A DNA stretch of 64,000 nucleotides from an uncultured Anaerolineales bacterium (lineage in GTDB: Bacteria > Chloroflexota > Anaerolineae > B4-G1 > SLSP01). Each line of letters starts with the position of its first letter. Position 1 is the stretch's first letter. The notes below the pieces were generated by a model. The model was not told where the DNA came from, searched no databases, and was given only the letters and a program-made list of their open reading frames with translations. Shown piece by piece: positions 3,443-51,341 of this stretch. Location: assembly GCA_964530185.1 (NCBI GenBank), contig CAZHBB010000003.1, forward strand, positions 13,563-77,562. Reading direction: 5' to 3'. Made by a program: the position numbers and the translations under genes.

Positions 3443-3455
3443 GGATAAGCTCTAG

Positions 3456-4526: not shown

Positions 4527-5873
4527 ATGAAGAACATCGCTTTAATTGGTGTTGGCTACGTTGGGCTCGTCAGTGGAGCCTGCTTCGCAGACCTTGGCAA
4601 CAAGGTCACATGTGTGGATATCGACGAGCGCCGCATTGCCAATTTGAACAAAGGCGTAATGCCCATCTTCGAGCCTGGTCTCGAGGAGCTTGTCCGTCGC
4701 AACACAAAGGCTGGACGCCTCTTCTTCACCACATCCTACGAAGAAGCGCTAAAGGACGCCAACTTTGCCTTCATCGCCGTCGGCACACCATCGGACGTCG
4801 ACGGTCAGGCCGATCTGCGCTATGTCCGAATGGCTGCAGAGTCCATAGCTGATGTCATTGACCACTATCTGATCATCGTCAACAAATCGACTGTGCCTGT
4901 GGGAACTGGCGACTGGGTCGCAGACATCATCCGAATGCGACGGCCCGATGTGCCAGACTTCGATGTTGTGTCCTGTCCCGAATTTCTCCGCGAGGGATCA
5001 GCCATCAGCGATTTCATGAACCCAGACCGGGTGATCCTAGGCTCCACAAACCGTGACGCAGCCGAAAAGGTCGCTCAGCTCCATCTGCCCCTGCGTACAA
5101 CCATCATGATCACTGACCTGCGTACCGCCGAGATGATCAAATACGCGTCCAACGCCTTTCTCGCCGCCAAGATCTCATTCATCAACGAGATCGCCAACAT
5201 CTGCGAGGCGCTGGGGGCTGATGTCAAAGAAGTCGCTTACGGCATGGGGCTGGATGACCGCATCGGCCATGCGTTCCTGGACGCTGGGTTGGGATGGGGC
5301 GGATCCTGCTTCCCCAAAGACGTCAAAGCCCTGGCTTCCATGGCCGAGATTGAGGGACGCCATCCCCATCTTCTCCATGCAGTCATGGATATCAATCGGG
5401 ACCAACGCTATGCGCCGCTCCGCAAGGCAGAACGTCTCCTGGGCCATGACCTTCGGGGCAAGGTCATTGGTATTCTGGGACTGGCATTCAAGCCCAACAC
5501 CGATGACATGCGGGATGCTCCCTCTATCGACATTATTCGCAACTTCCAGCGCCGCGGTGCGCTGGTCCGCGCTTATGACCCCGTCGCCATGGATAATGCG
5601 GCCCAAATCCTGGACGGCGTCGAGATGATGGAAAGCGCCTATGCGGTAGCGGAGGGCGCAGACGCGTTGGTACTGGTCACAGAATGGAACGAGTTCAAGA
5701 ACCTGGACCTGGAACGCGTTCGTGACCTGATGCGCCAACCTGTGCTCATCGACGGGCGTAACATTTACGACCCGACCCAAGCCCGCGAAGCAGGGTTCCG
5801 TTATTCGGGCATTGGACGCGGTTTTGAAGGACGCGGGGTCCGGGATCCCTGGCAGGCCGACGAGGCCTCTTGA
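4527..5873 (+). CDS. ugd: UDP-glucose 6-dehydrogenase
   Basis: The N-terminus [25 protein letters not shown] is a Rossmann fold, and a catalytic Cys region (GGSCFPKD) is present, giving UDP-glucose/GDP-mannose dehydrogenase family architecture. An AGGAGG RBS lies upstream of the ATG at 4527; the ORF-track start at 4434 lacks an RBS. Confidence 0.85.
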
Positions 5874-5920
5874 CACGCCATGCTGGGCCAGTGACGGCCA
5901 CCTCCGAGAAGGTTGCGATA

Positions 5921-7198: not shown

Positions 7199-7199
7199 G

Positions 7200-8513
7200 A
7201 TGGCAGCGCGCCAATCCCCAGTCACCCTATCCCCTCATGCCCTCCCTGGTCCCAGTAACACCCTGCGCGAGACGCTGCCCAACGGTCTCACCGTGCTGAT
7301 CCGCGAGAACCCTACGAGTCCGAGCGTGGTCATCAGCGGTTACGTTCTGGCAGGAGCTGAGGATGAACCCAGGGATAAGTCCGGCCTGGCGAGCTTCACT
7401 GCCGATGTCATGGAGCGCGGCACCCGTCGACGTCCCTTCTCCGTGCTCTACGAGGAGATCGAATCCATTGGAGCGTCTTTCGGTGTCACAGGAAGCACCC
7501 ACCTGACGCTCTTCGGAGCCAAAGGACTTAGCGAACATCTCCCTCTCCTGCTCGATATCCTGGCCGACGTGCTCCAACACCCGGCGTTTGAGACGCAGGA
7601 GGTCGAGAAGGTACGCGAGGAGATCCTGATTACCCTGCAAGAACGCGCCAACGATACCCGCCAGACCACGCGGCTTCGCCTCAGGCAATTGGCATACCCA
7701 CCAGAGCATCCGTACCATTGGAGTCTATTAGGAGATCCCAAGACCGTGCGCGCACTTTCACGGGAGGATCTACTCGCATTTCACTCTACTTACATTGCCC
7801 CACAAGGGGGCGTGCTAGTCATCGTTGGTGACGTACAACCACAGATTGCACTGGAGGCAGTCCACAGAGCGTTCGGAGCGTGGCAAAAGACCCGACCGCC
7901 TCGCCAGATGCCTCCTCCCGTTCCCAACATCCGCCAGCGGCGCCGAGACCACGTGACGCTGGCTGATAAATCCCAGATCAGCTTTCGCTTGGGATGGATT
8001 GGCCCCAGCCGCTATCACCCCGACTACCTATCTTGTCACGTCGCCAACACCATTCTGGGCGTGTTCGGCATGTATGGCCGTCTGGGAAAGCGCCTCAGAG
8101 AACAACATGGCCTCGCTTATTATGTCTCCAGCCATGTCAACAGCAGCCCTTACCCTGGCCTTTGGTCGATCTCCGCGGGCTTGGATCCGGACGCGGTCCA
8201 ACGGGCGAGGGCGATCATCCTCCAAGAGGTACAGGAACTCCAGGATCGACCTGTCAGCCTACAGGAGTTAGAGGACGTCCAGGCCTATTTAGTGGGCGGG
8301 CTTCCTCTGGCACTAGAGACCAATGAGGGTGTTGCCAGTGGCCTGGTAGGCATCGAGCGTTACGGGTTGGGCCTGGATTATTTCCACCGGTACAGTGATA
8401 TGATTTACGCAATCAGCCCCCAGGACGTGCAGCGTGTGGCTCGGTCATGGCTCGACAGCGATCACTACATCCTGGTAACTGCTGGACCTCGATTACCCTG
8501 TTTTACGGAGTGA
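7200..8513 (+). CDS. M16 family peptidase-like protein (probable non-catalytic partner subunit)
   Basis: It is a paralogue of the upstream M16 gene with the same domain order but no HxxEH motif. The RBS is AAAGGAGAG. This is the usual two-gene M16 arrangement. Confidence 0.75.
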   Translation: MAARQSPVTLSPHALPGPSNTLRETLPNGLTVLIRENPTSPSVVISGYVLAGAEDEPRDKSGLASFTADVMERGTRRRPFSVLYEEIESIGASFGVTGSTHLTLFGAKGLSEHLPLLLDILADVLQHPAFETQEVEKVREEILITLQERANDTRQTTRLRLRQLAYPPEHPYHWSLLGDPKTVRALSREDLLAFHSTYIAPQGGVLVIVGDVQPQIALEAVHRAFGAWQKTRPPRQMPPPVPNIRQRRRDHVTLADKSQISFRLGWIGPSRYHPDYLSCHVANTILGVFGMYGRLGKRLREQHGLAYYVSSHVNSSPYPGLWSISAGLDPDAVQRARAIILQEVQELQDRPVSLQELEDVQAYLVGGLPLALETNEGVASGLVGIERYGLGLDYFHRYSDMIYAISPQDVQRVARSWLDSDHYILVTAGPRLPCFTE

Positions 8514-8520
8514 GAGGGAC

Positions 8521-8970
8521 ATGTTGATCTGTACAACAGGCGTTGACTTGGTAGAGATATCACGGGTAGGGCGTATCCTGGCCCACTATGGAGACAGATT
8601 CCTGAAGCGCATCTACACGCCTGCGGAGTTGCTCTGCAGCAAAGGGCAAGCCACCGAGTTGGCAGCCCGCTTTGCCGCCAAAGAAGCCGTCTCCAAGGCG
8701 CTCGGCGTTGGCGTCAGGCTGCTTTCCCCCTCTGGCATCGGGTGGCTTGACGTCGAGACGCTTAATGACCCTCGGGGCAAGCCCTATCTGGTCCTTCATC
8801 GTAGAGCCAGGGCCCTTGCTGCAGCCCAGGGGCTGACAACCTGGTCCATTAGCCTGAGCCATGATGGAGGCATGGCCATCGCCTTCGTGCTGGCACTTGG
8901 CCTGTCCGAGACGCCAGAAGCTGGCCTAAAGCCCACGCTAACAGCGATCCTACCAGAACGCAAGGAGTAA
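8521..8970 (+). CDS. acpS: Holo-[acyl-carrier-protein] synthase (4'-phosphopantetheinyl transferase)
   Basis: 149 aa, with the [10 protein letters not shown] motif of the AcpS family near the N-terminus. Confidence 0.85.
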
Positions 8971-8977
8971 CGAAATA

Positions 8978-9436
8978 ATGCGAGCAGTCATCCAACGTGT
9001 CACACGTGCTAGCGTCACTGTCGATGGTCACCAGGTCAGCGCCATCGGGCCCGGTCTTCTGGTGCTGCTGGGGATCGCCAAAGGCGACACAGAAGCCGAA
9101 GCCCAATGGCTCGCCCACAAAATCGCCAACCTGCGCATCTTCCCCGATGAGGATGGGCGCATGAATCGTTCAGTTAAAGAGACAGGAGGACAGGTGCTGA
9201 TCGTGTCTCAGTTCACGCTCTGTGCCAATACCCGCAAGGGGTTCCGTCCCTCGTTTGTCTCAGCGGCACCACCGGATATCGCCAATAGACTCGTCGAGTC
9301 CGTTATCGGCTACGTGGCAGCCGAACGAGTCCCTGTGCAGAGCGGAGTGTTTGGTGCCCACATGGAATTGGCCCTCATCAACGACGGACCTGTCACCATA
9401 GTGCTTGATAAGACCCCGCCCCCGGAAGGAAATTAG
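8978..9436 (+). CDS. dtd: D-aminoacyl-tRNA deacylase
   Basis: 152 aa, starting MRAVIQRV and containing the SQFTL motif and a C-terminal NDGPVT motif typical of Dtd. Confidence 0.85.
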
Positions 9437-10420
9437 ATGGCCGACAACCCAGATCTGTGGGCCTGGTTCGTCTTCAAGAGCGGTCTGTCACCGATCCGCG
9501 CAAAGGAGCTTTTGGTCGCCTGGGAGAGGCGTGGATTGACTCTGAGTGAGGCCCTGAGGCAATTACCTCAGGCCGCAGCAGAACTTGGCCTGACACCAGA
9601 CGAGACACATGGCCTGCGGAGGCCGGATCATCTGACCTCGATGAGAGCACTGACCTGGCACCATGAACTCTACCCCGCTGGGTTGCGTCATTTACCCTTG
9701 AGACTACGTCCGGCTCTTCTCTTTTACCGGGGAGAGGTCTCGTTGCTGAGCCGCCCCCTTGTCCTCCTGGGGCCCACGCAGCCTACACAACAGACGCCGA
9801 TAGATCTTCTGGAGGAGACACTGGATCTGATCCTCGGTGAGGCCTGGGCCATTGGAGCCTTTGACCATACACCTCAGGCCACATTGTTGCTGAATGCGTT
9901 GAGCCACACCGAAGGCGAGGCTGTTCTCTTCTTACGCAGCGGACTGGAAGCCAGGCAGTGGTGTGACAAGGAGCTGACCTTCCTTAAGACACAGCGCTTG
10001 GTCGCCCTCTCGCCGTTGCCGCCCCAGACACCTGAAGCGCCTGCGTGGGTCCCGTTGCTTGAACACGTAGCTATAGCAGCCGCCAGCCGTATCATCACAG
10101 CGGGATCTCAAGAAGTCATCACTCAGTTCGCTCAGCGGTGTTTCGACAAACCTCTTCTCGGCCTCACGGAGCATATCCCTGCAAACACAAAGAAGGCAGG
10201 CTATTTCGCGATCACCGACCAACCAACGGATATCCTCATATGGCTGACCGACGAGAGCGCATTGACAAATAGGGACCTACGCGAGACTGACACCCAGCCG
10301 CCGATGGAGCAGCCGAAGCCTGAGTTATCGCCCGGTGAGATTTTGGCCATCTTGGAGAGCGGCGGCAAGATCCCATCAGCCTTGCGAAAACGGCTGACCT
10401 CACACAATCAGGGAGAATAG
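9437..10420 (+). CDS. Hypothetical protein with a degenerate DprA/Smf-like fold
   Basis: The start codon abuts the dtd stop. The region ...LYPAGLRHLPLRLRPALLFYRGEVSLLSRPLVLLGPTQ... resembles the DprA YP..L..I.dPP.vLfvrG....l..p.vAiVGsR block, but the GSR and SGxAxGiD motifs are not conserved. There is a C-terminal extension of about 100 aa. Confidence 0.35.
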   Translation: MADNPDLWAWFVFKSGLSPIRAKELLVAWERRGLTLSEALRQLPQAAAELGLTPDETHGLRRPDHLTSMRALTWHHELYPAGLRHLPLRLRPALLFYRGEVSLLSRPLVLLGPTQPTQQTPIDLLEETLDLILGEAWAIGAFDHTPQATLLLNALSHTEGEAVLFLRSGLEARQWCDKELTFLKTQRLVALSPLPPQTPEAPAWVPLLEHVAIAAASRIITAGSQEVITQFAQRCFDKPLLGLTEHIPANTKKAGYFAITDQPTDILIWLTDESALTNRDLRETDTQPPMEQPKPELSPGEILAILESGGKIPSALRKRLTSHNQGE

Positions 10421-10423
10421 CAA

Positions 10424-10981
10424 TCACTCCCAAGGCGCACCCACAAGGGCAACGGCGTCGATCTGATTCCACCATCCCGTTCGCGATTCATCCAGGTCAA
10501 CCCTCACAACGGCAACAGGATGGTCAGGCGGCAGGAAGCGCGCAACCAGCACGCCCGGGCAGGGCTCGTGAGTATCCTCACCCTCCCAGACAACCGTTGC
10601 AGTCCCCAGCGCATCAATGAGAGTGATGCGAGAGACCGCACCACGCCCATAGCTCTGGACGACTCGCACCTCAAAAGCTTGCACAGGGACAGCATAGCGA
10701 AGCTCCAGCCACTCCACTCCGTTACCTCGCGCCGAGGCCCAGGCCCGCGCGTCATCCTGGCAAGCCGCAATCTCAGGCGCCCCTGTGGCGCGACGCGCGC
10801 TCCAGTCTGGTATCCCATACTGTGAACTTGCTGTTGCTGCAATCGCCCATTGGGTAACCATCGCTGGCGTTGGCGTCGCGTCTGATCCTCGCTCCGAAGC
10901 TTGCAGGAGCACGCAGCCACTCAACAGCGCTGTCAATAGGAGAACACTCACGGGCAGAATTTGCAGTTTCACACCTGTCAT
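10424..10981 (-). CDS. Predicted lipoprotein, possibly with a discoidin/galactose-binding-like domain
   Basis: A signal peptide with lipobox LLSGC is present. The mature region has a W/aromatic pattern reminiscent of F5/8-type-C domains; this is a weak call. Confidence 0.4.
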   Translation of the reverse strand: MTGVKLQILPVSVLLLTALLSGCVLLQASERGSDATPTPAMVTQWAIAATASSQYGIPDWSARRATGAPEIAACQDDARAWASARGNGVEWLELRYAVPVQAFEVRVVQSYGRGAVSRITLIDALGTATVVWEGEDTHEPCPGVLVARFLPPDHPVAVVRVDLDESRTGWWNQIDAVALVGAPWE

Positions 10982-11120
10982 CCGTATCTATTCTAAGACG
11001 GAAGGGCCGATTGCCAAACCTGTGGATCTACACCTCATGAGCTGCGAGACGTGAATTGACTCTAACATTCTTGACAGTCGAAGGTGGTCCCTTGTCGGAC
11101 ACTCTCTTTTGCGGAAAGTG

Positions 11121-11149
11121 TTGACATATGGGCTTTTGCGTGTTAGAAT
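11121..11149 (+). promoter_or_regulatory. Sigma-70-type promoter upstream of the first RpiR regulator (TTGACA-17-TAGAAT)
   Basis: Consensus -35 and near-consensus -10 hexamers with a 17-nt spacer, about 40 nt upstream of the CDS. Confidence 0.5.
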
Positions 11150-11190
11150 GGAATTGAAACAAAAAAATCATCAAGAGACTGGTATACACC

Positions 11191-12135
11191 ATGAGCGCTA
11201 GACGACGATTTGACCCCTTTGCAATGAGACCCGAGGAAGTAGGGCTGTTTAAGGAGCGCATCCGCGAGAACTACGACCGCTTGACCCCAGGTTTCCGCCG
11301 GCTGGCCGATTTCATCATGAACAACACGCTGGACGTCGCCTTTTTCACCGCCACCGAGCTGGCCCGCTATGTGGGAGTGGATGCAGCCACAGTGGTCCGG
11401 TTCTCTCAGGAGATCGGCTATTCGGGCTACAGGGAACTGTCGCGCGAGATCAAACGCTATGTGCGTAATCGGTTGGTCTCCGCACGAGGCGAGGCTGCCA
11501 AGGCAGAGACCACAGAGGGCAAGTTGAGGATTGTCGCCGACTACGCAGCCGAGACCTTGCGAGAGTTCTCCGCTACGGAGCTGGAGAGAGTTGCCAGAGC
11601 GGTGGATCTCCTGACTCAGGCCCGCCACATCTGGCTGGCTGGCGAGTACAGTGAATATTACCTCGCTGAGTTCCTGGCCAAGCGGCTACAATCGATGGGG
11701 ATTGAAGCTACCTCGTTTATGCCCTCTATGGCTGAGGCCAGCACAATCCTGACCCAGATGGAAACCGGAGATGTATTGGTCGCCATTATCGGGCTGGACC
11801 CTGGTGTCGAAGTGGGTCATGCCATCCAGTTGGCCAAGGCCGCAGGTGTGAAAACCATCGCGGTCACCACGTCTGGCCTTGCGTTAGGCGCACGCCACGC
11901 TGATGTGACCCTGCTGGTCCCGGACGATAGCCCCGCAGAAGTGTCAGCGTTTGGCCCGCTGATGCAAGTGTTGAGCCTGATCTGGGAGACCATGATGATG
12001 CAGCAGCCGGAGAGGGTTGCGGAGCACCATCGTGTCCTACCAGAGTTGATGCGCCGCCTCGTGGAACTGCGGGCAACAACCCCAGAACATGAAGTGGGGG
12101 CACCTCAGAGCATCTGGCGGGAGAACATTGGTTAG
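11191..12135 (+). CDS. MurR/RpiR family transcriptional regulator (HTH_6 + SIS domain)
   Basis: An N-terminal RpiR-type HTH (FFTATELARYVGVDAATVVRFSQEIGYSGYRELSREIKRYVR) is followed by a SIS domain. The start could be 11191 or the ATG at 11224. Confidence 0.75.
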   Translation: MSARRRFDPFAMRPEEVGLFKERIRENYDRLTPGFRRLADFIMNNTLDVAFFTATELARYVGVDAATVVRFSQEIGYSGYRELSREIKRYVRNRLVSARGEAAKAETTEGKLRIVADYAAETLREFSATELERVARAVDLLTQARHIWLAGEYSEYYLAEFLAKRLQSMGIEATSFMPSMAEASTILTQMETGDVLVAIIGLDPGVEVGHAIQLAKAAGVKTIAVTTSGLALGARHADVTLLVPDDSPAEVSAFGPLMQVLSLIWETMMMQQPERVAEHHRVLPELMRRLVELRATTPEHEVGAPQSIWRENIG

Positions 12136-12264: not shown

Positions 12265-13140
12265 GTGTTCAAGGAACGCATTCGTGAGTACTACGACGAC
12301 TTGACCCCAGGGTTCAGAAAACTTGCTGACTTCTTGGTCCTCAACACGATGGACGCTGCATTCTTGACAGCCAGTGAGTTGGCGAGACAGGTGGGAGTAG
12401 ACCCCGCTACGGTGGTGCGATTCTCTCAAGAGATCGGCTATTCAGGTTACAGGGAACTCTCCCGTGAAATCAAGCGCTATGTACGGGATCAGGTCACTGC
12501 CACCTACCGGGAGGCCAAGGAAGCCAAGACCGAAGAAGATGTCCTCAATGTGATCCTCGACAACACAGAACAGCAGTTACAGCATTTCCGCGCCACCGAG
12601 ATCCCCTCGCTTGCCAAGGCCATTGAAGTTCTGAAGCAGGCCAGCCGGATATGGATCACAGGTGAATTCACGTCATTCGATCTGGCTGCCTACTTGGCCA
12701 AGGCACTGAGTCCCACCGTCGGCGTGCCAACCAAGTATTTCCACCCCAGCATCTCCGAAACCGCAGCCGCCGTGGCTCAGATGAAGAAAGGTGATGCTCT
12801 GCTTGCACTGGCAATCGGCATCCCTGGCCTGGACACCGGCTATGCAGTCCACCTGGCAAAGGAGAAGGGGCTCCAAACCATCTGTGTGACAAACTCAGGA
12901 ACCGTGCTCCCTGCCCGCGAAGCCGATATTACCCTTGTAATACCGACACGCAGCCCGCTTGCCGTGGCCAGCTACAATCTATCTCTGCTGATCCTTGGTG
13001 TGATATGGGAAGCTCTGGTGGCAAGTCGCGTTGAGAAAGCCGCCGAGGCGTTCACGGCAGTCCACAGCAACATGAGTGAGATCCTTGAGCTACGCGGACA
13101 GACAAAGCCTTTCGAGGTGAGCACATTGGAAACCGAGTGA
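12265..13140 (+). CDS. MurR/RpiR family transcriptional regulator (paralogue of the upstream gene)
   Basis: GTG start with a GGAGGTG RBS. It has the same HTH_6 + SIS architecture as the upstream gene and is near-identical to it in the HTH region. Confidence 0.8.
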   Translation: MFKERIREYYDDLTPGFRKLADFLVLNTMDAAFLTASELARQVGVDPATVVRFSQEIGYSGYRELSREIKRYVRDQVTATYREAKEAKTEEDVLNVILDNTEQQLQHFRATEIPSLAKAIEVLKQASRIWITGEFTSFDLAAYLAKALSPTVGVPTKYFHPSISETAAAVAQMKKGDALLALAIGIPGLDTGYAVHLAKEKGLQTICVTNSGTVLPAREADITLVIPTRSPLAVASYNLSLLILGVIWEALVASRVEKAAEAFTAVHSNMSEILELRGQTKPFEVSTLETE

Positions 13141-13226: not shown

Positions 13227-13643
13227 TCAGAACCACCGACTAAACAGGATCCGAACGAGCCAACTGACAGCCCGCACCAAGAGGAAGAAAGCGCCGAACA
13301 AGAAGGCCATACCTAACAACGCTGCTAAGATGTTGAGACCACGCGCATCTTTCCGGGTTAATCGCTTTCCAGCCACGGCTAAAGCATCAGCCCCCCCGAT
13401 CAGACCTCCCACGACCCCACCCCAAAGGACATATTGCATCAAACTTCCACTGATCAGCCCTGCCCCACGCGCGAGCGAGGCCGCCACCAATGCTAGCAGC
13501 CCACCGACAACAGCCCCAAACATCTGGCGGCCCCAACTGTCCGTAGCCTGGGTGGCTGTCTCGTGCCCATCGGTGGCGCTCTCATGTTGCTCTTCATTAA
13601 CTGGCTCAGGTTCTGCCATGTGACCCTCAATTCTGTGTGACAT
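13227..13643 (-). CDS. Small membrane protein with glycine-zipper-like transmembrane segments (hypothetical)
   Basis: 138 aa: an acidic N-terminus followed by three predicted TM helices rich in GxxxG. The alternative start at 13619 has a weak RBS. Confidence 0.4.
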   Translation of the reverse strand: MSHRIEGHMAEPEPVNEEQHESATDGHETATQATDSWGRQMFGAVVGGLLALVAASLARGAGLISGSLMQYVLWGGVVGGLIGGADALAVAGKRLTRKDARGLNILAALLGMAFLFGAFFLLVRAVSWLVRILFSRWF

Positions 13644-13785: not shown

Positions 13786-16071
13786 ATGTCCGGATGGCAC
13801 GGTCAACAGTCCACCAGGCGTACACCATCAGCACGACGCGCTCTCAGAGATCGCAGTCTGTGGCTCATCATCATTGCCTTCTGGACCCTCGCGACGGCCT
13901 GGAACTTCATCGTCCCACCTTACGAGAACCTGGATGAACTGGAGCACGCTGAGGTTGTGCGCCATATCGTCATCACGGGGAAATTGCCCATCCATGGTAC
14001 TGCGGAGGCCGCAGGGTATCGCGTACGCCAGGAAGCATCTCAGCCCCCGCTTTATCATATACTTGCAGCTTTGTGGTCGCGGGCCCTGGGACTTCCTACT
14101 GACCCCCATGCCCCCGAGCCCACACCCCCCACTGTCGTGGCATGTGGGCTCACTGGCACTCTGTACAACAAAGCTACATGGATACACAATCCAGCGGAGG
14201 AGGCACTCCCCTGGCACGGTGCGATCCTGACACTCCATGCACTCCGGATCTTCTCAATGCTACTTCAGACCTTCACGCTCCTGGGGACATGGGTGCTGGT
14301 CAGACGGGTGTTTCCCGCGGGACCAACTGCGTGGCTGGCCACCAGCCTGGTCGCCTTCAACCCCCAATTCCTCCTCATGACCGCCGATGTCAACAACGAC
14401 AACGCCGTGGTACCGCTGGCGACATGGGGGCTAGTCCTCGCGTACGATCTCTGGCGCCACGGCCATCAAGGATGGCGAGCCTGGGTTTTGGGCCTCGTCA
14501 GCGGACTGGCCGCACTGAGCAAATTGAGTGGTCTGGGCGTCGCCGGACTGGGGCTTCTCGCGCTCATAGCCCGCTGGGCCCAGCGACGGGAATCCTTCAC
14601 TCGAACCGTATTGCACAGCGCGGCGATCATGCTGCCCGCGGCCCTGTTATTGGTCCCCTGGATCTGGCGCAACCTCCAGCTCTACAGTGACCCTACGGCG
14701 CTCGCGCCTATGTTGGAGAAAGTCGGGTACCGGACCAGCTCCCCAGGATGGGGGGATTTCTGGATGACGTGGGCTTCATTTTGGGGACAACTTCCGTGTG
14801 CTTTCTATCCCCGTGTTTTCTATCTTCCCTATGGCATCGTCACACTGGGCGGGTTAATCGGCCTGGCCCTTCAGTGGCGGCGGCTCTCACCCTCAGTGCG
14901 GGCCTTATCTCTCCTGTCCATCATCTGGTATCTGGTGATCACCGGAGCATGGTGGCGATGGAACACCATCACACCCGCTCCTGGTGGACGGCTCCTCTTC
15001 CCGGCGATAGCCGCAGGTGCCTTCATCCTCGCCACCGGGTGGCGGGTCGCGGGGAAACGTGCCAGCATGATCTGGAGCATTCTCCTCCCAATGTGGGTGG
15101 TGCTCACACTGCGCATAGGGCCAGTGGAGGCTTTTGCCTACCCACGTGTCCTGCCTGCTGCCAAATTCGCTAAGGGAATGTCGGTTGCGCAAGCTGGTGA
15201 CGCCATCAAACTCCTACACTACACGGCGCGTATCATCCCCCATGACCCAGCATGCGTCTTCGTCTCCCATGCGTATTGCCAGCCGACACTCGATCTGACG
15301 TTGACATGGCAGGCAGAGCGCTCCATAGAGCAAAACCTCACCATGGTGGTCCAATTCGTCTCCCTGGCTCCCGGCGACACCACTCTGCGTCTCAACTACA
15401 ACCACTGGCCCGGCCGAGGCAACCTACCCACTCGTCTCTGGCCCGTGGGCCAGCCCCTCCGCGACCATTACCGGATACCCTTGCCCCGATCGCCCTACGA
15501 GACCCAAGCCTGGCGTCTGACCGTGGCATGGGTAGATCCTGTCGACAGCTCCAGACTCCCGACATACAACGCCGCTGGGGAGCCAACGGGTAACGTGATA
15601 GACCTGGGGCTCTGCCGCGTGCCTGGCGTCGCCCCGCCTGAACCGGGCTGGCATCACCCTGCCACCCCCGTCGACTTTCGACTCTCTGGAGCCAGCCCGT
15701 GGGGCCTCCGGTTGAGTGACGCTCGTGTGACGCCCGGCTCACAAGGCGATCCATGGCAGGTCGCTCTCGTCTGGGAGAGCTTAGCGCCAATCGATAGCGA
15801 CCTGACAGTCTTCGTACACGCCTACGACTCGTCTGGGACCCTGTTGACAGGAGGTGACGGCCCACCGCGCGGGGGAACATTTCCGACGCACCTCTGGTTG
15901 CCGGGGGATCGGATCGTGGATAGCCACACCCTGGCGATCACGGAGGACATGGATGTGGAAGCCATCGCAGTAGGCCTCTACGACGCAACAACAGGCGCGC
16001 GCGCCGAGGCCTTGCAACAGGGACAGTTATTACCAGACGGTGCGGTCATCCTCTGGCGCGCCAAGCCATGA
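13786..16071 (+). CDS. GT-C-fold membrane glycosyltransferase (ArnT/PMT-like) with a repeated C-terminal extracytoplasmic domain
   Basis: Multi-TM N-terminal half with a YENLDELEH acidic motif in the first loop, consistent with the DE motif of GT-C enzymes. The C-terminal roughly 300 aa contain repeats of a domain with the pattern VFVH..D..G.L...D..P..G.YPT..W.PG..I.D.H.L. The start is ambiguous: the ORF track gives 13669, and 13786 is the first ATG downstream of a TATACT -10. Confidence 0.6.
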   Translation: MSGWHGQQSTRRTPSARRALRDRSLWLIIIAFWTLATAWNFIVPPYENLDELEHAEVVRHIVITGKLPIHGTAEAAGYRVRQEASQPPLYHILAALWSRALGLPTDPHAPEPTPPTVVACGLTGTLYNKATWIHNPAEEALPWHGAILTLHALRIFSMLLQTFTLLGTWVLVRRVFPAGPTAWLATSLVAFNPQFLLMTADVNNDNAVVPLATWGLVLAYDLWRHGHQGWRAWVLGLVSGLAALSKLSGLGVAGLGLLALIARWAQRRESFTRTVLHSAAIMLPAALLLVPWIWRNLQLYSDPTALAPMLEKVGYRTSSPGWGDFWMTWASFWGQLPCAFYPRVFYLPYGIVTLGGLIGLALQWRRLSPSVRALSLLSIIWYLVITGAWWRWNTITPAPGGRLLFPAIAAGAFILATGWRVAGKRASMIWSILLPMWVVLTLRIGPVEAFAYPRVLPAAKFAKGMSVAQAGDAIKLLHYTARIIPHDPACVFVSHAYCQPTLDLTLTWQAERSIEQNLTMVVQFVSLAPGDTTLRLNYNHWPGRGNLPTRLWPVGQPLRDHYRIPLPRSPYETQAWRLTVAWVDPVDSSRLPTYNAAGEPTGNVIDLGLCRVPGVAPPEPGWHHPATPVDFRLSGASPWGLRLSDARVTPGSQGDPWQVALVWESLAPIDSDLTVFVHAYDSSGTLLTGGDGPPRGGTFPTHLWLPGDRIVDSHTLAITEDMDVEAIAVGLYDATTGARAEALQQGQLLPDGAVILWRAKP

Positions 16072-18392
16072 ATACGATGGACAGAGTAGTTCGCTGGCCG
16101 GGGATTGCACGTGACCTATTGCTGATCCTGGTGGCCTTCACTATCCTGACCGCACTCTACAACCTATTTACTCCTATCTTTGAGGCCCCAGATGAAGTCT
16201 GGCACTACGCCCATCTCCGGTGGTTGGCTGAGGGACATGGATTGCCTTCTCTGATCGACGACCGCAGCGGCGCCTATCAGGAAGCCGCCCAACCCCCACT
16301 CTACTATGCCTCAGCCGCGCTTCTCAGCTACACCATTCCCGATGATGACCTTCCCTCCTTGATGTGGCACAATCCCGGTTTCGGGTTCCAGGCACCAGGG
16401 ACAGTCGCCGACAACAAGAACATGCTTATCCACACGACACGCGAGAGATGGCCCTGGCGAGGGGCGGTCCTGGCTGTCCACGTCGCCCGCCTCACCTCCT
16501 GGCTCTACGGGCTGATAGCCGTTTCCGCAGCCTGGGGCTTAGGAATGGAGACCTTCGGTGACCGCCACGGTGCTCGTCTCACCGCCGCATGGCTCGCCTT
16601 CCACCCACAGTTCGTTTTTATCTCCAGCGTGATCAACAATGACGCCGCCGCCACCGCCCTAGCCACGGTGGTGCTTTGGCGTTGTGCCCGGGCTTTGCGC
16701 CGCGGCATCCAACGATACGACAGCCTGCTATTGGGCATGGCAGTGGGGTTGGCCACCCTGGCTAAGACCAGTCTGCTGGCACTGATCCCCATCGGATTAG
16801 GGGCGATTGCCCTCGCACACGTGCTGCATCGAGGCAAGCACACGTCGTTCACCAACCGGTTCTCTCTCTCTTCTCTGGCCAGCTATCTGCTGGGCGTTGC
16901 CATCATAGGTGGATGGTGGTACGCACGCAACTGGATGCTCTACCAGGACCCACTTGGCCTTAGCACACACCTCAGAACCCCCTGGGGACGTCCAGCAACG
17001 CTTTCCCTGCCAGATCTCATCCCAGAGATCCCCCTGGTCTTGCGCTCATTCTGGGCAGCTTACGGGTGGGGACATGTGACATGGCCTCCAATCTACTACA
17101 TACTGCTCTGGACATTGGCGCTTTGCCTCATCGCCGCAGCCCTTTGGACACTGGGGCGCAACTGGTACACATGGCTTAAACGCCCTCAAGAGAAACGAGG
17201 GACAGGATTCTCCCTTCCAGAGCCATCGGTCCTGATAGCTACGCTCTCTCTCTTCTGGGCAGCCGCGATAGTCGCCGCGCTCGTCCACTGGATGCAACAG
17301 GTGGAGGCCCCTCATGGTCGCCTCCTCTTCCCGGCGTTAGGAAGCTGGGGGATTGTCCTCACATGGGGTGCGTTGGAGTTGCGGCATCGCTCACCCCGGC
17401 TCGGGATCCTCATCACGCGGGGCCTCCTGGGCCTCATGGCGACTTTAAGCATCCTGGCCCCAGGAGCCCGTATCGCCAGCACCTTCAGCATGCCGCGGCT
17501 CCTCTCGCCCTCAGAGATCACGACCCGGTGTGAGACACCGGTCAACCTGCATTACGACGAGCTCGCCCAGCTCTCATGCTTGAAGATCGAGCCACAGCGA
17601 GTCAGGGTAGGAGAAAAGGTCGCCGTAAGCGCCTGCTGGATCGCCCTGGCTCCTATCGAGCGAGACTACACCGTCTTCGTGCACATCCTGGGTCCAGATA
17701 TGATGCGCGTTGGAGAGCGTCATACATATCCAGGGCTGGGCAGGTATCCTACGACACTGTGGTCACCCGGATTGGGGTTCTGTGAGACCTATCGTGTGCA
17801 GATCTCCACCTGGGCTGAGGCCCCCCTGCGCTATCAGGTGGAAATTGGCCTATTCGAGCCCGAGACCGGCGCACGACTGCCCGTCACTGATGCCCTGGGC
17901 CACTCTATGGCTCCCCCGGTGGCAGGGCACCTGGTGATCACGCCACTTGAACCCTTCGAGCCAAGACCCAGCCGCTTACTCGCTGCCCACCTAGGTGAAG
18001 GGATTGAATTACTCGGTGCAGATATTCCCTCAGGCGCTCAAATCGGCGACCGCGTCCCCATCACCCTCTATTGGAAGGCCAAACACACTCTCGCCCACGA
18101 CTATGTCGCTTTCGTCCACCTGTGGCGACCTGGGGACAACGCACCTCTCGCACAACACGACAGTCAGCCCCGCGCAGGTTGGTATCCAGTATCCGCGTGG
18201 GGCCCCAACGACGTCATATCGGACACACACATCCTGGAGATTCCCTCGGCGATGACACCTGGCACGTACCCCTTATGGGCCGGGCTGTACGATCCCGTGG
18301 ATGGGACGCGGCTTGCAGCCTATGGCCCGGACGGGCGTTACACGGACGACTTAGTCCCCCTCGGCACAATCGAAGTGCAATCACCGCCCTAA
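16068..18392 (+). CDS. GT-C-fold membrane glycosyltransferase (paralogue of the upstream gene)
   Basis: The ATGA overlap with the upstream stop indicates translational coupling. An FEAPDEVWH motif is present, with the same multi-TM core and three copies of the C-terminal repeat domain (YTVFVHILGPD..., YVAFVHLWRPGD..., ...). Confidence 0.65.
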   Translation: MNTMDRVVRWPGIARDLLLILVAFTILTALYNLFTPIFEAPDEVWHYAHLRWLAEGHGLPSLIDDRSGAYQEAAQPPLYYASAALLSYTIPDDDLPSLMWHNPGFGFQAPGTVADNKNMLIHTTRERWPWRGAVLAVHVARLTSWLYGLIAVSAAWGLGMETFGDRHGARLTAAWLAFHPQFVFISSVINNDAAATALATVVLWRCARALRRGIQRYDSLLLGMAVGLATLAKTSLLALIPIGLGAIALAHVLHRGKHTSFTNRFSLSSLASYLLGVAIIGGWWYARNWMLYQDPLGLSTHLRTPWGRPATLSLPDLIPEIPLVLRSFWAAYGWGHVTWPPIYYILLWTLALCLIAAALWTLGRNWYTWLKRPQEKRGTGFSLPEPSVLIATLSLFWAAAIVAALVHWMQQVEAPHGRLLFPALGSWGIVLTWGALELRHRSPRLGILITRGLLGLMATLSILAPGARIASTFSMPRLLSPSEITTRCETPVNLHYDELAQLSCLKIEPQRVRVGEKVAVSACWIALAPIERDYTVFVHILGPDMMRVGERHTYPGLGRYPTTLWSPGLGFCETYRVQISTWAEAPLRYQVEIGLFEPETGARLPVTDALGHSMAPPVAGHLVITPLEPFEPRPSRLLAAHLGEGIELLGADIPSGAQIGDRVPITLYWKAKHTLAHDYVAFVHLWRPGDNAPLAQHDSQPRAGWYPVSAWGPNDVISDTHILEIPSAMTPGTYPLWAGLYDPVDGTRLAAYGPDGRYTDDLVPLGTIEVQSPP

Positions 18393-18427: not shown

Positions 18428-19480
18428 TCACGAACCCACGGTCTGCCTTGAAACAGGTCTGCGTGCCATTGCCCGCAAACTCGACCAACCAGGACCAGCG
18501 CTGAAAAGCGCACTCAGAGCCATACAGATCGCAGAAGTGAGACACCAGGCGCAGGTTGCGCCGATGACAAAAGGCTCCAAGAACGTAAGGTAGATAGAAA
18601 AAGTCAACCCGAAAAGCGACATGAGCAGTCTGAGCGCAGAAGCGTACGTCTTGACAGTAGCCTGCCCCCATGCCACCAACGCTGTTGTCCCCAAGAGAGC
18701 CACATAACCCAACACCCCCAGGACAGCGACCGGCACCACACCAAAGAGCATTGCATACTGGCTCTGCTGTACAGCATTGCAATCGCCGACCGGACCACAG
18801 ACCGCCGTGCTCCCTGTTGTCTCGACGTAAGCCAAGTACGAGGCGGCACCGAGCCCGACTAGAAGTACCAAGAATAGCCCGCCAGCGCCGACGCGCTTCG
18901 CCAACGCTTCCTGCCAACCCCGTGGCTTGATCACCAGAATCAGGACAACGGTTAGCCCCACCAGCACCAACGTGGACAAAGTGTTCCCGACCGGGTCCTG
19001 CAGGAACCGGGCCCGCCAATCTCGATTTACCACCCCATTATCCCCTTCCAAACTGCGTACAGCTTCGACCATCCCAGGCAGGTCTGGCCAATCTGTCCCC
19101 CCCTGTTGCAGGGCATCATCGATAAGCCCCGGTAACTCAGTTGGAATATCCCGCGAGCCCACCAGGATATGCTCTCCAATGATCGCTGTCGGGACACCTA
19201 CCAACGAGGGGTGGTACTTGTCTACCACTGCATGGAATAACCTCTGACCATCAGGAGTGCTGATGTCGATCAGAGCAACGCGCAATTGATCCCCGTAATG
19301 GGACTGTAACGGCGGGAGTACCTCAGTCATCACCAGATGGCAATGTGGACAACTGGGATGATAGAAAAGCACAACGCGTACGATGGCTTGGTCAGCACTT
19401 GCGGTAACCGGCACGCTGAGCACCAGTAGACCTACAAGAACGCACACAAGAGCTCTGGAGCACCATGTCAACGGATTCAT
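18428..19480 (-). CDS. Thioredoxin-like domain fused to a vitamin K epoxide reductase (VKOR) domain
   Basis: Signal/TM segment, then a DsbA/Trx-like domain with CPHC, then a multi-TM VKOR-like domain with a loop Cys pair (CGPVGDC) and a CAWC active site. The likely start is at MNPLTW; the ORF-track start at 19543 adds 21 aa without an RBS. Confidence 0.6.
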   Translation of the reverse strand: MNPLTWCSRALVCVLVGLLVLSVPVTASADQAIVRVVLFYHPSCPHCHLVMTEVLPPLQSHYGDQLRVALIDISTPDGQRLFHAVVDKYHPSLVGVPTAIIGEHILVGSRDIPTELPGLIDDALQQGGTDWPDLPGMVEAVRSLEGDNGVVNRDWRARFLQDPVGNTLSTLVLVGLTVVLILVIKPRGWQEALAKRVGAGGLFLVLLVGLGAASYLAYVETTGSTAVCGPVGDCNAVQQSQYAMLFGVVPVAVLGVLGYVALLGTTALVAWGQATVKTYASALRLLMSLFGLTFSIYLTFLEPFVIGATCAWCLTSAICMALSALFSAGPGWSSLRAMARRPVSRQTVGS

Positions 19481-19692
19481 CAAGTTCCCTCCAAAGACCT
19501 GCAACGAGCTTGAGCCTGAACCGTGTCGACGCAATACACTCAATCATAACCGACACTGCGCAATGGGCAATGCCCCTCAGCACAGACTTCACCAAGCCGT
19601 GTCTCGTGCCACAGACGTCATGTCGCTCACTCAGCCCACTAACTCTCAGGCAGGAGCACGCCCCCAGAGGGCATGCCAGCCTCGAAATTGTG

Positions 19693-19771: not shown

Positions 19772-20275
19772 ATGAAGACGATCGACGATCTCAAAGCTGC
19801 GTTCGCTGGTGAGTCACAGGCTAACCGCAAGTATCTGGCATGGGCCAGGCAGGCAGAGCGTGAGGGACACCCCGGTGTGGCCCGTCTCTTCCGGGCCGTG
19901 GCAGCGGCTGAGACCGTGCACGCGCATAATCACTTCCGTACGTTGGGTGAGATCAAGACCACCACCGAGAACCTCAGGGCCGCCATTGAGGGCGAGAACT
20001 ACGAGGTCGTGACGATGTACCCTGATTTCTTAGCTGACGCGCGGGAGGAAGGACACAAAAGGGCGGCCCGCTCGTTTGAATGGGCCTGGGAAGTGGAGAA
20101 GATCCACGAAAAACTCTACGCCGCGGCCTTGGAAAAGCTCTCCGAAGGAGAGGAACCAGAGGAGACCACGTATTGGGTCTGCGGCACCTGTGGACACACG
20201 TTTGTGGGCGATGAGCCACCCGAGCGTTGCCCCATCTGCGGTGCCAAGCGGACTGGCTATATGCGCATCGAGTGA
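19772..20275 (+). CDS. rbr: Rubrerythrin
   Basis: 167 aa: a ferritin-like diiron domain (E..H pairs) plus a C-terminal rubredoxin-like domain (CGTCGH...CPICG). Confidence 0.85.
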   Translation: MKTIDDLKAAFAGESQANRKYLAWARQAEREGHPGVARLFRAVAAAETVHAHNHFRTLGEIKTTTENLRAAIEGENYEVVTMYPDFLADAREEGHKRAARSFEWAWEVEKIHEKLYAAALEKLSEGEEPEETTYWVCGTCGHTFVGDEPPERCPICGAKRTGYMRIE

Positions 20276-48539: not shown

Positions 48540-48608
48540 GCATATCTCCCGAAATGATGTGGCCACCCAATGATAGCAGAGCCACCGAAAACCCCAACCA
48601 CGGCTGTG

Positions 48609-51341
48609 TTATGGGCTTTGTACTCTCAGCTCGAGCGGCAGATCCAACGCGTCACTTCCCGTCTCCCAGGGGATCCGGGCACCGCTGTCACCATGGTAGA
48701 GTCCTACCCTCAGGCGCACCGGCCCCTCAGACAAGGGTTGCAGCCATGTGAGTGGATGTACATCCTCGATGATCTCACCAGGGACCCAGCCTGTTGTAGG
48801 GCGGTGCCACAGAGCGGGCTCGGCATCGTGCTGCGCGACCAACGTGCCCGCTTCTGTCACCAGATGTACAAACACCTTCAAGCGCTGTGTCGCGGCTTGT
48901 GGTCCAGCCTCCCAGATCAGCGTCACCGTACACGGCGCCCCTGCCGTGAGAACCGGCTCAGGCGTGACCTCGTAGCCGCGTAACACCGCCACATCGTCCA
49001 TTCGCACGTTCAGGGCATGCGTCATGGGGGGCAGCTCAAACCGGTGCTCACCCTCCAGGATCCGAATCTGATCCAACTCCCAACTTCCACCTTCCATCTC
49101 CACCAGCAGTTGGGCCGGGCCCTCTTTTGCACTCGAGGGAACTGTCAATCGTACATGCTCCAACAGCGGCCTCCCAGGCGGTGTGCCGGAGGCAAGGGCA
49201 GGCAATGGCGTGGCAGTCAGGCGTTGCTCACCTTGCCACAGGGCCAATGTGGCCCCAGTGCATGGACAAGCCCCTTCCTCACGCCGCCACAACAACGTAA
49301 CGACCAGATCACCACCGGGCGCGAGCTCATACTCACTCAATCGGTGGCCCTCCAATTGAAGTCCCGGAAGCAGTTGACGTACTTCACCCTGCCAGGACTC
49401 TTCCGGAAGATACAGCGACGGCTCCTGCCATGGGGTCACCCGTGGTCTGACGGAACCCACGACGACAGCCGGTTGTGGCCCTGACTGAGAAACCAGATCG
49501 ACGGGGGTGATAGTCTGGTTGCCTTCGTACAACCCCGCCTCCAACCTGTGCACCAGCGGCGCGAGCCCCACTGGCAGCGGGACCAGGTGATAAGTGGAAA
49601 TGGGCTTTCCATCCCAGTGATCGGTCCCCCGCAATGTGACGTCCACCAACAGGTCATCCTCTGCAGCCACCAACACACCTTCAGAGTCGTATAGACGAAG
49701 AGCCACACTGAGGCGGGTGGGGGCTGGTTCACCATCCCAACACAGACGCATCGGTAGTGCAGCCCCGCTGATGGGGCGCTCCTGGAAAGCAACACCCACA
49801 AGGCATGGTCCTCCTCCCTCAGCACACCACGCAGGCAGCGGCCGGCAGGGCGGCATGGCTGCCATCCCTTCCATCAGGTACTCCTCCAGGAACACACCCT
49901 GGAACTGCTGTCGGGCAACCAGCCTGCCATGCCACGTCAGTGCGGCCCGGACGCTGCCATAAGCATCCAGCGCGCCACGCTCGTAGTCCAGCGCAAACAC
50001 CCGTCGTGCCCCCTGGTCCTCCAGGAGCACAGCTCCGGCATCATCCGCCCCAAACGCCTCAGGGACCATCATGGGGTGCACAAGCCCGATGTCATACTGC
50101 ACCAGAGACCAATCCGTGTGGGGGATCAGGACCACATCACCTGCTTCGCCCTCCTGGCGGAGGAAGGCCGCAACGGCCCGCACATCGGTGCGGGCATAGC
50201 GTGGATCGACTAGGTAAGCCCGTATGCCCAGCACAGAGCTCACCAGCACCGCAGCCAGCAATCCCATGCGCAGGCCGGGGTTCAGGCGAGACAGCGTTGT
50301 AAGCAGAGCGATCAGCATCCATCCACCAGGGATCAGGGCATACAGGTAGCGAGGGTGAGACTGAGGGCTCAACCACCAGATGCCCATAGAACCCAACAGA
50401 GGAATCAACCAGAGGTACACCCAGGGCTCCAGGCGAGATCTCGTGAGCCTATGCCGCACACCCTCCAACACGGCAACCCCCAACCACGCCCCCACCAGCG
50501 CCGTTGCCCGCATCAGCAGAGGGTCTGCCAGTGCCTGCGGCATCCCCATGATTTGGAAGGCCATGATCAAGCGCAACACATAGAACCACGGGGCCGGTTC
50601 ATCCAACACATTGCCCAGTCCAGCCTGAGACTGCAGAGCCATTGTCCCGACGCGCAGCACGAAGACCGCCCATGGGACCAACAGAACCCATGCTACCCCA
50701 CAAGCCGTCAACCACAGGCGCACCAGATTGCGTCCGACCTCCTGGGCAGTATCCTCCATACCTCCGAGAGGCCGCCATATTCCCAGCAGCCGCGCGGTGA
50801 CCGCCAGCAGAGCACCGCCAAGGGCGATCACGCCCCCGTAATGCGTCAGGAGCAGAGCAGCGATGGCAATACCCAGAAGCACACCCCGACCCCGCCAGTG
50901 GCGCATGTCGGCTCGCAGTGAGGGCCAGGCATGAGCCCACAACACCAGGGAGAATAGGGGTAAGAAAATATAGGCCCGTACCTCTTGACCATACACCACG
51001 ACCGGGGGTGCAAGGGCGATCAAGAGCCCTGCGACATGTCCCGCCCGAGCGCTGACCCGTCCCCGCAGGAAAGCTTGCACCACTGCGGGTAAAAGGGTGG
51101 CCGCGAGCACAGAGAGATAACGCCCGGTGAATGGCGTGCGGCCAGCGGCCATGGCCCACACCTTCAAGGCCACGAAATAGAGGGGGGGGTGAATATTGGA
51201 GGCGCGATCCAAAAGCAGGTCTCGCCAGGGTAGTCCAGCAAGGTGAAGGCTGATCCCCTCATCCCACCAGATAGATTGCATCCTCAACGTGAGCGTGAGG
51301 AGTACGAACAACAGCAAAGTAGGCAGGAGCCTTCGCGTCAC
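48609..51341 (-). CDS. GT-C-fold membrane glycosyltransferase (ArnT/PMT-like) with a large repeated C-terminal domain
   Basis: GTG start. A WWDEGISLH motif is in the first loop and the polytopic core spans about 450 aa. The C-terminal roughly 450 aa carry the same repeat-domain type as the paralogues at 13786 and 16068 (LHLVTEAGTLVAQHDAEPALWHRPTTGWVPGEIIEDVHPL). Confidence 0.6.
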   Translation of the reverse strand: MTRRLLPTLLLFVLLTLTLRMQSIWWDEGISLHLAGLPWRDLLLDRASNIHPPLYFVALKVWAMAAGRTPFTGRYLSVLAATLLPAVVQAFLRGRVSARAGHVAGLLIALAPPVVVYGQEVRAYIFLPLFSLVLWAHAWPSLRADMRHWRGRGVLLGIAIAALLLTHYGGVIALGGALLAVTARLLGIWRPLGGMEDTAQEVGRNLVRLWLTACGVAWVLLVPWAVFVLRVGTMALQSQAGLGNVLDEPAPWFYVLRLIMAFQIMGMPQALADPLLMRATALVGAWLGVAVLEGVRHRLTRSRLEPWVYLWLIPLLGSMGIWWLSPQSHPRYLYALIPGGWMLIALLTTLSRLNPGLRMGLLAAVLVSSVLGIRAYLVDPRYARTDVRAVAAFLRQEGEAGDVVLIPHTDWSLVQYDIGLVHPMMVPEAFGADDAGAVLLEDQGARRVFALDYERGALDAYGSVRAALTWHGRLVARQQFQGVFLEEYLMEGMAAMPPCRPLPAWCAEGGGPCLVGVAFQERPISGAALPMRLCWDGEPAPTRLSVALRLYDSEGVLVAAEDDLLVDVTLRGTDHWDGKPISTYHLVPLPVGLAPLVHRLEAGLYEGNQTITPVDLVSQSGPQPAVVVGSVRPRVTPWQEPSLYLPEESWQGEVRQLLPGLQLEGHRLSEYELAPGGDLVVTLLWRREEGACPCTGATLALWQGEQRLTATPLPALASGTPPGRPLLEHVRLTVPSSAKEGPAQLLVEMEGGSWELDQIRILEGEHRFELPPMTHALNVRMDDVAVLRGYEVTPEPVLTAGAPCTVTLIWEAGPQAATQRLKVFVHLVTEAGTLVAQHDAEPALWHRPTTGWVPGEIIEDVHPLTWLQPLSEGPVRLRVGLYHGDSGARIPWETGSDALDLPLELRVQSP

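Follow-up and report, generated by a model that had tools for sequence, protein, structure and literature searches.

A tandem pair of GT-C glycosyltransferase genes

Within the 64,000 nucleotide (nt) stretch of DNA analysed here (the window; forward-strand positions 13,563 to 77,562 of contig CAZHBB010000003.1, assembly GCA_964530185.1, from an uncultured Anaerolineales bacterium), two adjacent genes on the same strand encode paralogous membrane glycosyltransferases of the GT-C type, each ending in a repeated domain. Gene A (13786..16071, + strand) has an ATG start and encodes an A-type paralogue of 761 amino acids (aa); its start is uncertain, as the frame is open from a GTG at 13669, which would make the product 800 aa. 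Gene B (16068..18392, + strand) encodes a B-type paralogue of 774 aa. A preliminary description of this DNA had placed an adjacent same-strand pair of genes of about 760-800 aa here, in agreement with these two open reading frames. The stop codon of A (TGA) and the start codon of B (ATG) overlap by 4 nt, read from the sequence as ATGA (16068..16071, + strand), and no terminator-like site was found between the two genes. The overlap suggests that A and B may be translationally coupled.

A and B are 27 % identical across their whole length (BLASTP, E 7e-57) and are old paralogues. The A-type and B-type proteins form separate orthologous groups, with 37-54 % identity inside each group as against 27 % between them. 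All 28 A-type orthologues, at 37-54 % identity, are in Anaerolineae loci. The exact sequence of B has no record in the contig collection.

The GT-C core and its acidic loop motif

Both proteins carry the acidic first-loop motif that had been reported for them, YENLDELEH in A (residues 46-54) and FEAPDEVWH in B (residues 38-46). In gene A, the putative catalytic site E47-N-L-D50-E51-L-E-H54 (13924..13947, + strand) lies directly after the first transmembrane segment, and in gene B, E39-A-P-D42-E43-V-W-H46 (16182..16205, + strand) follows immediately after the helix at residues 11-34 of the structural model. The E/D/E/H pattern is without exception in a 46-sequence family alignment. Among sequences collected from genomes, E47, D50, E51, and H54 are unchanged in all 29 A-type proteins (A and its 28 orthologues), and E39, D42, E43, and H46 are kept in 61 out of 62 B-type proteins. 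Since the motif is invariant in both orthologous groups, A and B are both probably active enzymes, and from their sequences both look catalytically competent. Acidic loop residues after the first transmembrane segment are also present in two further GT-C genes of the window, C (WWDEG) and D (HDES), which are described below.

The AlphaFold2 model of B, built from the 46-sequence alignment, is confident and has approximately 11 long helices, after which come two all-beta domains (predicted local distance difference test, pLDDT, 91.1; predicted template modelling score 0.86). Against solved structures, this model scores 22.6 with ArnT, 22.5 with Pmt4, 22.4 with AglB, 21.5 with Pmt2, and 21.0 with AftB. 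It also matches the GT-C structures STT3B, GPI-MT-I, ALG9, PglB, ALG3, AftA, Pmt1, and AftD, and beyond these PIG-U, GAB1, ALG6, DPY19, and PimE; the Foldseek results are in agreement. The core of B superposes on solved GT-C enzymes and has the GT-C_A fold. The polytopic GT-C core of the preliminary description is thus borne out by the loop motif and by the predicted structure of B, in which a GT-C fold was looked for and found. Because B is nearly equally close to ALG12, ArnT, PMT, AglB, and AftB, the acceptor class is not given by the fold alone.

Sequence families describe these cores less well. The sole Pfam signal of B is DUF2142 (PF09913), at 26.6 bits (E 3.4e-6) where the cut-off is 30.1; neither A nor C has a DUF2142 match. 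There is no match to PMT_2 (PF13231) or PMT (PF02366) at E ≤ 0.1 in A, B, or C, and none of the three reaches threshold in the NCBIfam scan. Three orthologues with 46-51 % identity to B (P0007, P0064, and P0112) do pass Pfam PMT_2/PMT, at 41-50 bits with a cut-off of 26.1, and P0112 is also above threshold for DUF2142 (44.5 bits). From their sequences, A, B, and C are therefore divergent relatives of PMT_2/PMT and not clear members. In the Pfam scans, a MIR domain was absent from A, B, and C and also from their homologues. Among PDB sequences, neither single-sequence nor profile searches found a relative of A or B, only chance matches. In a large protein collection there are 635 homologues of B, with coverage of 95-99 %, which are named in their sources as 'glycosyltransferase family 39', 'ArnT family', or 'DUF2142' and come from Anaerolineae or Chloroflexota metagenome-assembled genomes (MAGs).

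The C-terminal repeat

Following the core there are, in A as in B, exactly two copies of a module with a beta-sandwich fold. In A, repeat 1 is encoded at 15184..15633 (+ strand, aa ~467-616) and repeat 2 at 15685..16068 (+ strand, aa ~634-761); repeat 2 reaches the C-terminus and includes TVFVHAYD...GDGPPRGGTFPTHLWLPGDRIVDSH in an alignment of 30 repeats. In B, repeat 1 (17541..17951, + strand, aa 492-628, with the strands of the model at 491-625) bears the loop ERHTYPGLGRYPTTLW and a cysteine pair, C523 and C572, at least 90 % conserved in the 46-sequence alignment. Repeat 2 of B (17979..18386, + strand, aa 638-773) likewise reaches the C-terminus.

Separate hidden Markov models (HMMs) were made from repeat 1 and from repeat 2 of the B-type homologues. 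With the repeat-1 HMM, matches were obtained to B repeat 2 (independent E-value, i-E, 1.2e-15), to repeats 1 and 2 of A (1.8e-11 and 1.5e-15), and to C (3.5e-11); with the repeat-2 HMM, they were obtained to B repeat 1 (1.5e-19), to the A repeats (5e-13 and 3.4e-25), and to C (7e-25). This similarity is far beyond chance, and the repeat constitutes a genuine family of domains. Across all open reading frames of at least 80 aa in the window, neither HMM matched anything outside A, B, and C.

The preliminary description had given the unit as roughly 90 aa, present in two or three copies in A and B. Neither figure stood; one unit is approximately 125-135 aa, which corresponds to one whole seven- or eight-stranded beta-sandwich, and the copy number is two in each protein. 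The pattern that it gave, VFVH...D..P..G.YPT..W.PG..I.D.H, is recovered in the 30-repeat alignment, the consensus of which reads L.G...G..v.VtL.W.A......DYtVFVHL.......a..D..P..G.YPTS.W..G....D...L..P.......Y.l..GLY.....G.RL. Only two columns, both tryptophan (Trp), are invariant over all 30 repeats, and repeats 1 and 2 each keep a conserved signature of their own across orthologues.

In the model of an isolated unit (pLDDT 97.5), the fold is a seven- or eight-stranded beta-sandwich. Its most conserved contiguous block is outside the hydrophobic core, in a loop of polar and aromatic residues that links strands 4 and 5 and has the sequence ERHTYPGLGRYPTxLW (repeat 1) or QHD..PR.GWYPT..W (repeat 2). 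In repeat 1 of B the loop block at residues 551-565 is at least 95 % conserved and largely outside the strands; in repeat 2 of B the conserved loop residues include H684, D698, and W711. Against solved structures, the isolated unit matches the carbohydrate-binding domains of Wzt (6o14, 10.1; 5hno, 9.8; 7k2t, 9.6; 2r5o, 8.6), as well as Spo0M, complement MG domains, the NIS1 effector, and agarase carbohydrate-binding modules (CBMs; 8.5-8.7). The Ig-like domains of GH2 enzymes give a Z equal to that of the Wzt-C matches, so the likeness to Wzt is at the level of the fold only. In Foldseek, the C-terminal tandem is matched best by tandem Ig/FnIII scaffolds (RbmA, E 5e-7; transglutaminase C-terminal barrels; complement MG domains).

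The third gene in which the preliminary description had seen the repeat, gene C (48609..51341, - strand, 910 aa), does contain it. A canonical copy (48627..49013, - strand, aa 777-905) is matched by the two independent HMMs with i-E of 7e-25 and 3.5e-11, and in BLASTP it matches the repeats of B at 1e-7 to 3e-8 and those of A at 1e-9. There is also a divergent copy (49431..49829, - strand, aa 505-637), with an independent i-E of only 0.062 and an alignment over the whole unit. A degenerate middle copy (49092..49376, - strand, aa 656-750) has the N-terminal strands only and is a weak assignment, with an i-E of 6.1, or 0.0059 using an HMM that included C sequences. Relatives of C typically show three matched stretches, as C does. 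Its 239 homologues cover 97-100 % of its length, and many of them have PMT_2 and are named GT39 or mannosyltransferase.

An unnamed domain family behind several GT-C cores

The repeat could not be named in the preliminary description, and no characterised family was found for it here in Pfam, NCBIfam, or the PDB. In Pfam, there was no match to the repeat in A, B, C, 30 isolated repeats, or 11 homologues, and at E ≤ 1 the 30 repeats gave chance-level matches only (Nis1, Pga1, DUF4832, MalQ_N). NCBIfam was likewise without any match, and no sequence relative was present among PDB sequences, including by profile search. There was no significant sequence match between the repeat and Wzt_C, the catalogued CBM families, or the Ig-like Pfam families. 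Precomputed Pfam annotations of approximately 240 homologues cover N-terminal GT-C families only, apart from one weak match to PF26626 (DUF8201). This was rejected as the repeat family, since a model covering the repeat would match nearly all of the homologues. No description of the repeat module was found in the literature on C-terminal domains of GT-C, GT39, or GT83 proteins in Chloroflexi/Anaerolineae, on DUF2142, or on DUF8201.

With the repeat profile, HMMER was run exhaustively over 1.84 billion cluster representatives (clusters at 50 % identity) and identified 29,114 proteins with the repeat at E ≤ 1e-3, 20,492 at ≤ 1e-10, and 6,062 at ≤ 1e-30. A word-indexed search with the same profile had given 21 short fragments, which held no information on architecture. 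In the best 148 representatives there are two copies in 30, three in 111, and four in 7, and the array invariably stands at the very C-terminus, the last unit being followed by a median of 2 aa. In 102 of these 148, the part upstream of the repeats is longer than 380 residues, with nine hydrophobic segments as the median; the rest resemble shorter membrane anchors or metagenomic fragments that lack their N-terminal part. In eight long representatives, Pfam assigned the cores before the repeats above threshold to PMT_2, PTPS_related (PF10131), and TMEM260-like (PF11028), and the C-terminal end of YfhO was matched faintly, below threshold. The repeat is thus a promiscuous C-terminal partner of GT-C cores generally. 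The suggestion that it is specific to the glycosylation machinery of this locus does not hold, given the number of cluster representatives and the several GT-C cores that carry it. All repeat carriers for which the source names an organism are from Chloroflexota, and repeat 2 had no tblastn match in 72,556 plasmids.

A different architecture is seen in a 4.46 Mb contig (L081, ENA ERZ25069711 ctg17328), where at least seven tandem paralogues of 505-588 aa are encoded at 1529-11669, one of them split into 389 and 152 aa. These proteins consist of a polytopic domain of approximately 250 aa (EWNIP...DEY..HE; no Pfam match on record) and one or two repeats (i-E 1e-19 to 1e-24). Besides GT-C cores, then, a considerably smaller membrane domain can also precede the repeat.

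Conservation of the pair among related loci

A scan of one genome per species gave 429 relatives of B, of which 80 were retained, every one from an Anaerolineae, Anaerolineales, Thermoflexia, or Chloroflexota MAG. The locus of one uncultured Anaerolineales bacterium (L080) is 94 % identical to the window and collinear with it.

Upstream genes were counted in the 58 loci with enough upstream DNA. An A-type gene is present upstream of the B-type gene on the same strand in 27 of these, another repeat-bearing paralogue is upstream in 10, and no paralogue is present within 8 kb upstream in 21. Where A and B types occur together, they abut directly in 12 loci, are separated by one gene of approximately 1.1-1.5 kb in 7, and have a repeat-bearing GT-C gene between them in 8, C-like (~920-950 aa) in 7 of the 8. 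The 4-nt overlap is also found in the called genes of the pairs in L083 and L084, which are only approximately 50 % identical to the pair in the window. At the syntenic position, A is missing in L085, L015, L016, L039, L053, and L054. Arrays of 5-7 paralogues are present in L064, L067, L070, L077, and L079.

In approximately 25 related loci, a secreted or anchored protein of approximately 350 aa is encoded immediately upstream of the B-type gene (for example L002 6932-7948, L023 2965-4038, L026 6916-7953, L030 3508-4599, L056 6719-7858, and L086 8898-10004); in L086 its gene and the B-type gene share 4 nt. The protein has an N-terminal signal anchor, an N-terminal LVNPGFE... part resembling a beta-jelly-roll, a Thr/Pro-rich stretch, and a C-terminal part with a weak FN3/Pur_ac_phosph_N-like match. 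The intervening gene of approximately 1.1 kb between A-type and B-type genes encodes this protein. No homologue of it was found in the window. This protein may be a substrate or a partner.

Neighbouring genes and other GT-C genes of the window

Directly upstream of A are two tandem RpiR-family regulators (HTH_6 + SIS; 11191-12135 and 12265-13140, + strand), and an RpiR pair is also found upstream of the B-type gene in approximately 12 related loci, with or without A. Between the second RpiR gene and A, on the opposite strand, is a 138-aa open reading frame with hydrophobic segments (13227-13643, - strand), which is conserved only in L080 (94 % identical); L085 has a called gene of 125 aa at the same position. 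Convergent with B is a gene for a 371-aa protein (18428-19543, - strand), which has a thioredoxin-like CxxC segment at its N-terminus and a VKOR domain at its C-terminus. It is kept downstream of the B-type gene in close relatives and is likely to be an extracytoplasmic disulfide-forming enzyme. A functional link of the VKOR or RpiR/SIS genes to the pair was considered and rejected; their co-location is kept only among close, generally syntenic relatives, which points to inheritance of gene order.

A rubrerythrin gene (19772-20275) is also downstream of B. In several relatives three or four LiaF-like, LiaI-LiaF-like_TM1, or Toast_rack genes, of the cell-envelope-stress type, follow the B-type gene and are followed in turn by rubrerythrin (L083 12626-15693; L084 12325-15290; L085 15778-18675). 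The window retains the rubrerythrin gene and is without the LiaF-like block. Other glycosyltransferase genes are found near two of the related pairs: in L083 the pair is preceded by a GT4/GT2/GT2/GT4/deacetylase cluster, and in L086 a 316-aa GT2 and a GT4 are near it.

Gene C is directly upstream of gene D (45231-48566, - strand, 1111 aa), with a 42-nt gap, and the two form a second tandem GT-C pair. Gene D has a core of the Agl23/TIGR03663 type (225 bits; PMT_2 34 bits) and, in place of the beta-sandwich repeats, a C-terminal NHL-repeat beta-propeller (four NHL repeats, E 2e-33). The fifth GT-C gene (35170-36678, - strand, 502 aa, PMT_2 63 bits) is without the repeat. It adjoins genes for two putative surface proteins (33026-34036 and 34069-35088, + strand), one with dockerin and CarboxypepD_reg domains and the other with a cohesin and two LysM domains.

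Interpretation of the locus

The best explanation of the locus as a whole is that A and B are paired GT-C glycosyltransferases in which the C-terminal tandem holds the acceptor, to which a probability of roughly 0.55 is given. A and B would be transcribed together and, as paralogues that diverged long ago, would belong to a family of membrane-embedded GT-C enzymes that is found throughout the Anaerolineae and depends on lipid-phosphate sugars. Each is predicted to have a cytoplasmic N-terminus, approximately 11 transmembrane helices, the E-x-x-D-E-x-x-H catalytic motif in the first extracytoplasmic loop, and, after the last helix, two beta-sandwich modules outside the membrane. Loop 1 and the C-terminal domains are placed outside because of the eleven long helices and the positively charged N-terminal tail, and the nearly invariant cysteine pair in B-type repeat 1, predicted to form a disulfide, fits an oxidising compartment. 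The sugar would be taken from a polyprenyl-phosphate carrier, the donor that we infer, at the outer face of the membrane and passed on to a polymer or glycoprotein of the envelope. The tandem of beta-sandwiches may hold the glycan or acceptor through its conserved surface loop (D/H..P..G.YPT..W) and offer it to the active site. Such an acceptor-binding role of the repeat is plausible, and it is the most likely one because of the two invariant Trp residues, the conserved polar and aromatic loop, and the precedents of EmbC and Wzt-C. The conserved order of A and B, their abutting, and the retention of the catalytic residues in both suggest that they most likely carry out two different steps on one product, perhaps as a heteromer.

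Several observations count against this explanation. In the Pfam scan, A, B, and C all fell below every gathering threshold. The fold match of the repeat is a generic one, as complement, arrestin, and transglutaminase have Ig-like domains that score almost as high as the carbohydrate-binding domains. No polyprenyl-phosphate sugar synthase (GT2), flippase, or obvious acceptor gene was found near A and B in the window, and we know of no ligand, donor, or acceptor for any member of the family. The 21 loci in which the B-type gene has no upstream paralogue also weigh on this side, as does L085, which is syntenic with the window and yet lacks A. As B-type genes so frequently occur without an adjacent A-type gene, an obligate complex of the two is unlikely, and an obligate A-B heterodimer has been given less weight for this reason.

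The repeats could instead be structural or oligomerisation modules, such as Ig-like spacers or dimerisation domains, and not ligand binders; they would then keep paralogous GT-C subunits together or form a stalk in the envelope. The Ig/FnIII scaffolds that best match the tandem in Foldseek would fit such a role, as would a copy number that varies between two, three, and four, as in spacer domains, and the tandem clustering of the paralogues. The strongest conservation is, however, in a loop of polar and aromatic residues (H, D, Q, R, T, Y, W, P-G) and not in core positions alone, B-type genes are often without an adjacent paralogue, and the distinct signatures of repeats 1 and 2 point to specific functions and not to a generic spacer; a purely structural role is considered improbable. 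Equally improbable is that A and B are PMT-like protein O-glycosyltransferases with repeats that recognise protein substrates such as secreted envelope proteins. Orthologues do pass Pfam PMT and PMT_2, the Thr/Pro-rich protein of approximately 350 aa beside B-type genes in approximately 25 loci could be a dedicated substrate, and TMEM260-like cores, from a protein O-mannosyltransferase family, also bear the repeat. Set against this, ArnT, with a lipid acceptor, and ALG12 and AftB, with glycan acceptors, score equally well, the MIR domain is absent, the window is without the secreted protein, and no evidence points to a protein acceptor.

The adjacency of A and B may also be without meaning, the two being independent enzymes left by duplication and the 4-nt overlap ordinary compaction of an operon. 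This would account for the six syntenic loci in which A is missing, the loci without an upstream paralogue, and the scattering of the five GT-C genes of the window among housekeeping genes. It accounts less well for A and B types being distinct groups, for the persistence of the A-then-B order and the abutting in pairs only approximately 50 % identical to this one, and for the identity of the genes inserted between them, which are either repeat-bearing GT-C genes or the gene for the conserved secreted protein. It is considered somewhat doubtful, though less so than the structural and protein-acceptor alternatives. Held with similar reserve is an extension of the acceptor-holding explanation, in which the repeat is a very large, undescribed module family dedicated to GT-C enzymes and setting their acceptor specificity, and in which the A-B paralogues, as a heteromer, and the conserved secreted partner seen in other genomes make up an assembly line for an uncharacterised glycan or glycoprotein of the Chloroflexota envelope; this is proposed only tentatively.

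The enzymes of the GT-C class make arabinogalactan, modified lipid A, N- and O-glycoproteins, and teichoic-acid decorations, and for only a few of them is the choice of acceptor understood. The cell envelope of Chloroflexota is also poorly understood. As GT-C enzymes with extracytoplasmic carbohydrate-binding beta-sandwiches, EmbC and AftD, are already known, there is no new principle in this locus, which consists of divergent GT-C cores with a large, apparently unnamed family of accessory domains. One unnamed domain family behind at least three GT-C core families and tens of thousands of protein clusters is a sizeable gap in annotation. Naming and characterising the module would give better annotation to the many proteins that are now called 'GT39 family / hypothetical', and it offers a tractable way into the envelope glycobiology of the Chloroflexota.

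Comparison with known systems

The mycobacterial arabinosyltransferases EmbC and EmbA-EmbB (GT53, GT-C) are likewise encoded by tandem paralogous GT-C genes and, after a polytopic catalytic core, end in an extracytoplasmic beta-sandwich region that has conserved Trp. They differ in the number of transmembrane helices (15, as against approximately 11 in A and B) and in the build of the C-terminal domain, which in A and B consists of two homologous repeats. There is no sequence relationship between them, and A and B do not belong to the Emb/Aft family. To our knowledge, Chloroflexota are without arabinogalactan. In the C-terminal lectin-like CBM of EmbC, conserved Trp residues bind the acceptor and are needed for extension of the polymer (PMC3044687). 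For a heteromer of A and B, the EmbA-EmbB heterodimer (title of PDB 7bvf) and Pmt1-Pmt2 (6p2r) are precedents.

The PMTs (GT39; Pfam PMT/PMT_2) share with A and B an eleven-helix GT-C core, an acidic D-E motif in loop 1, and the pairing of paralogues. They differ in the MIR domain of the large loop, which A and B lack, and in having no C-terminal tandem of beta-sandwiches. ArnT (GT83) shares the GT-C core with B and is without a beta-sandwich domain. DUF2142 proteins are membrane proteins of cell-wall polysaccharide loci in Gram-positive bacteria. In streptococci they are found in rhamnose-polysaccharide loci (PMC9746298). None of the ArnT or DUF2142 models covers the C-terminal repeats.

The Wzt-C domain of O-antigen ABC transporters (PDB 6o14, 5hno, 2r5o, and 7k2t) has no detectable sequence homology to the repeat. 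It is cytoplasmic and joined to a nucleotide-binding domain, whereas the repeat would be outside the membrane. Wzt-C and EmbC's C-terminal domain are both glycan-binding domains on membrane glycan machines, and they are the closest functional precedents for the repeat.

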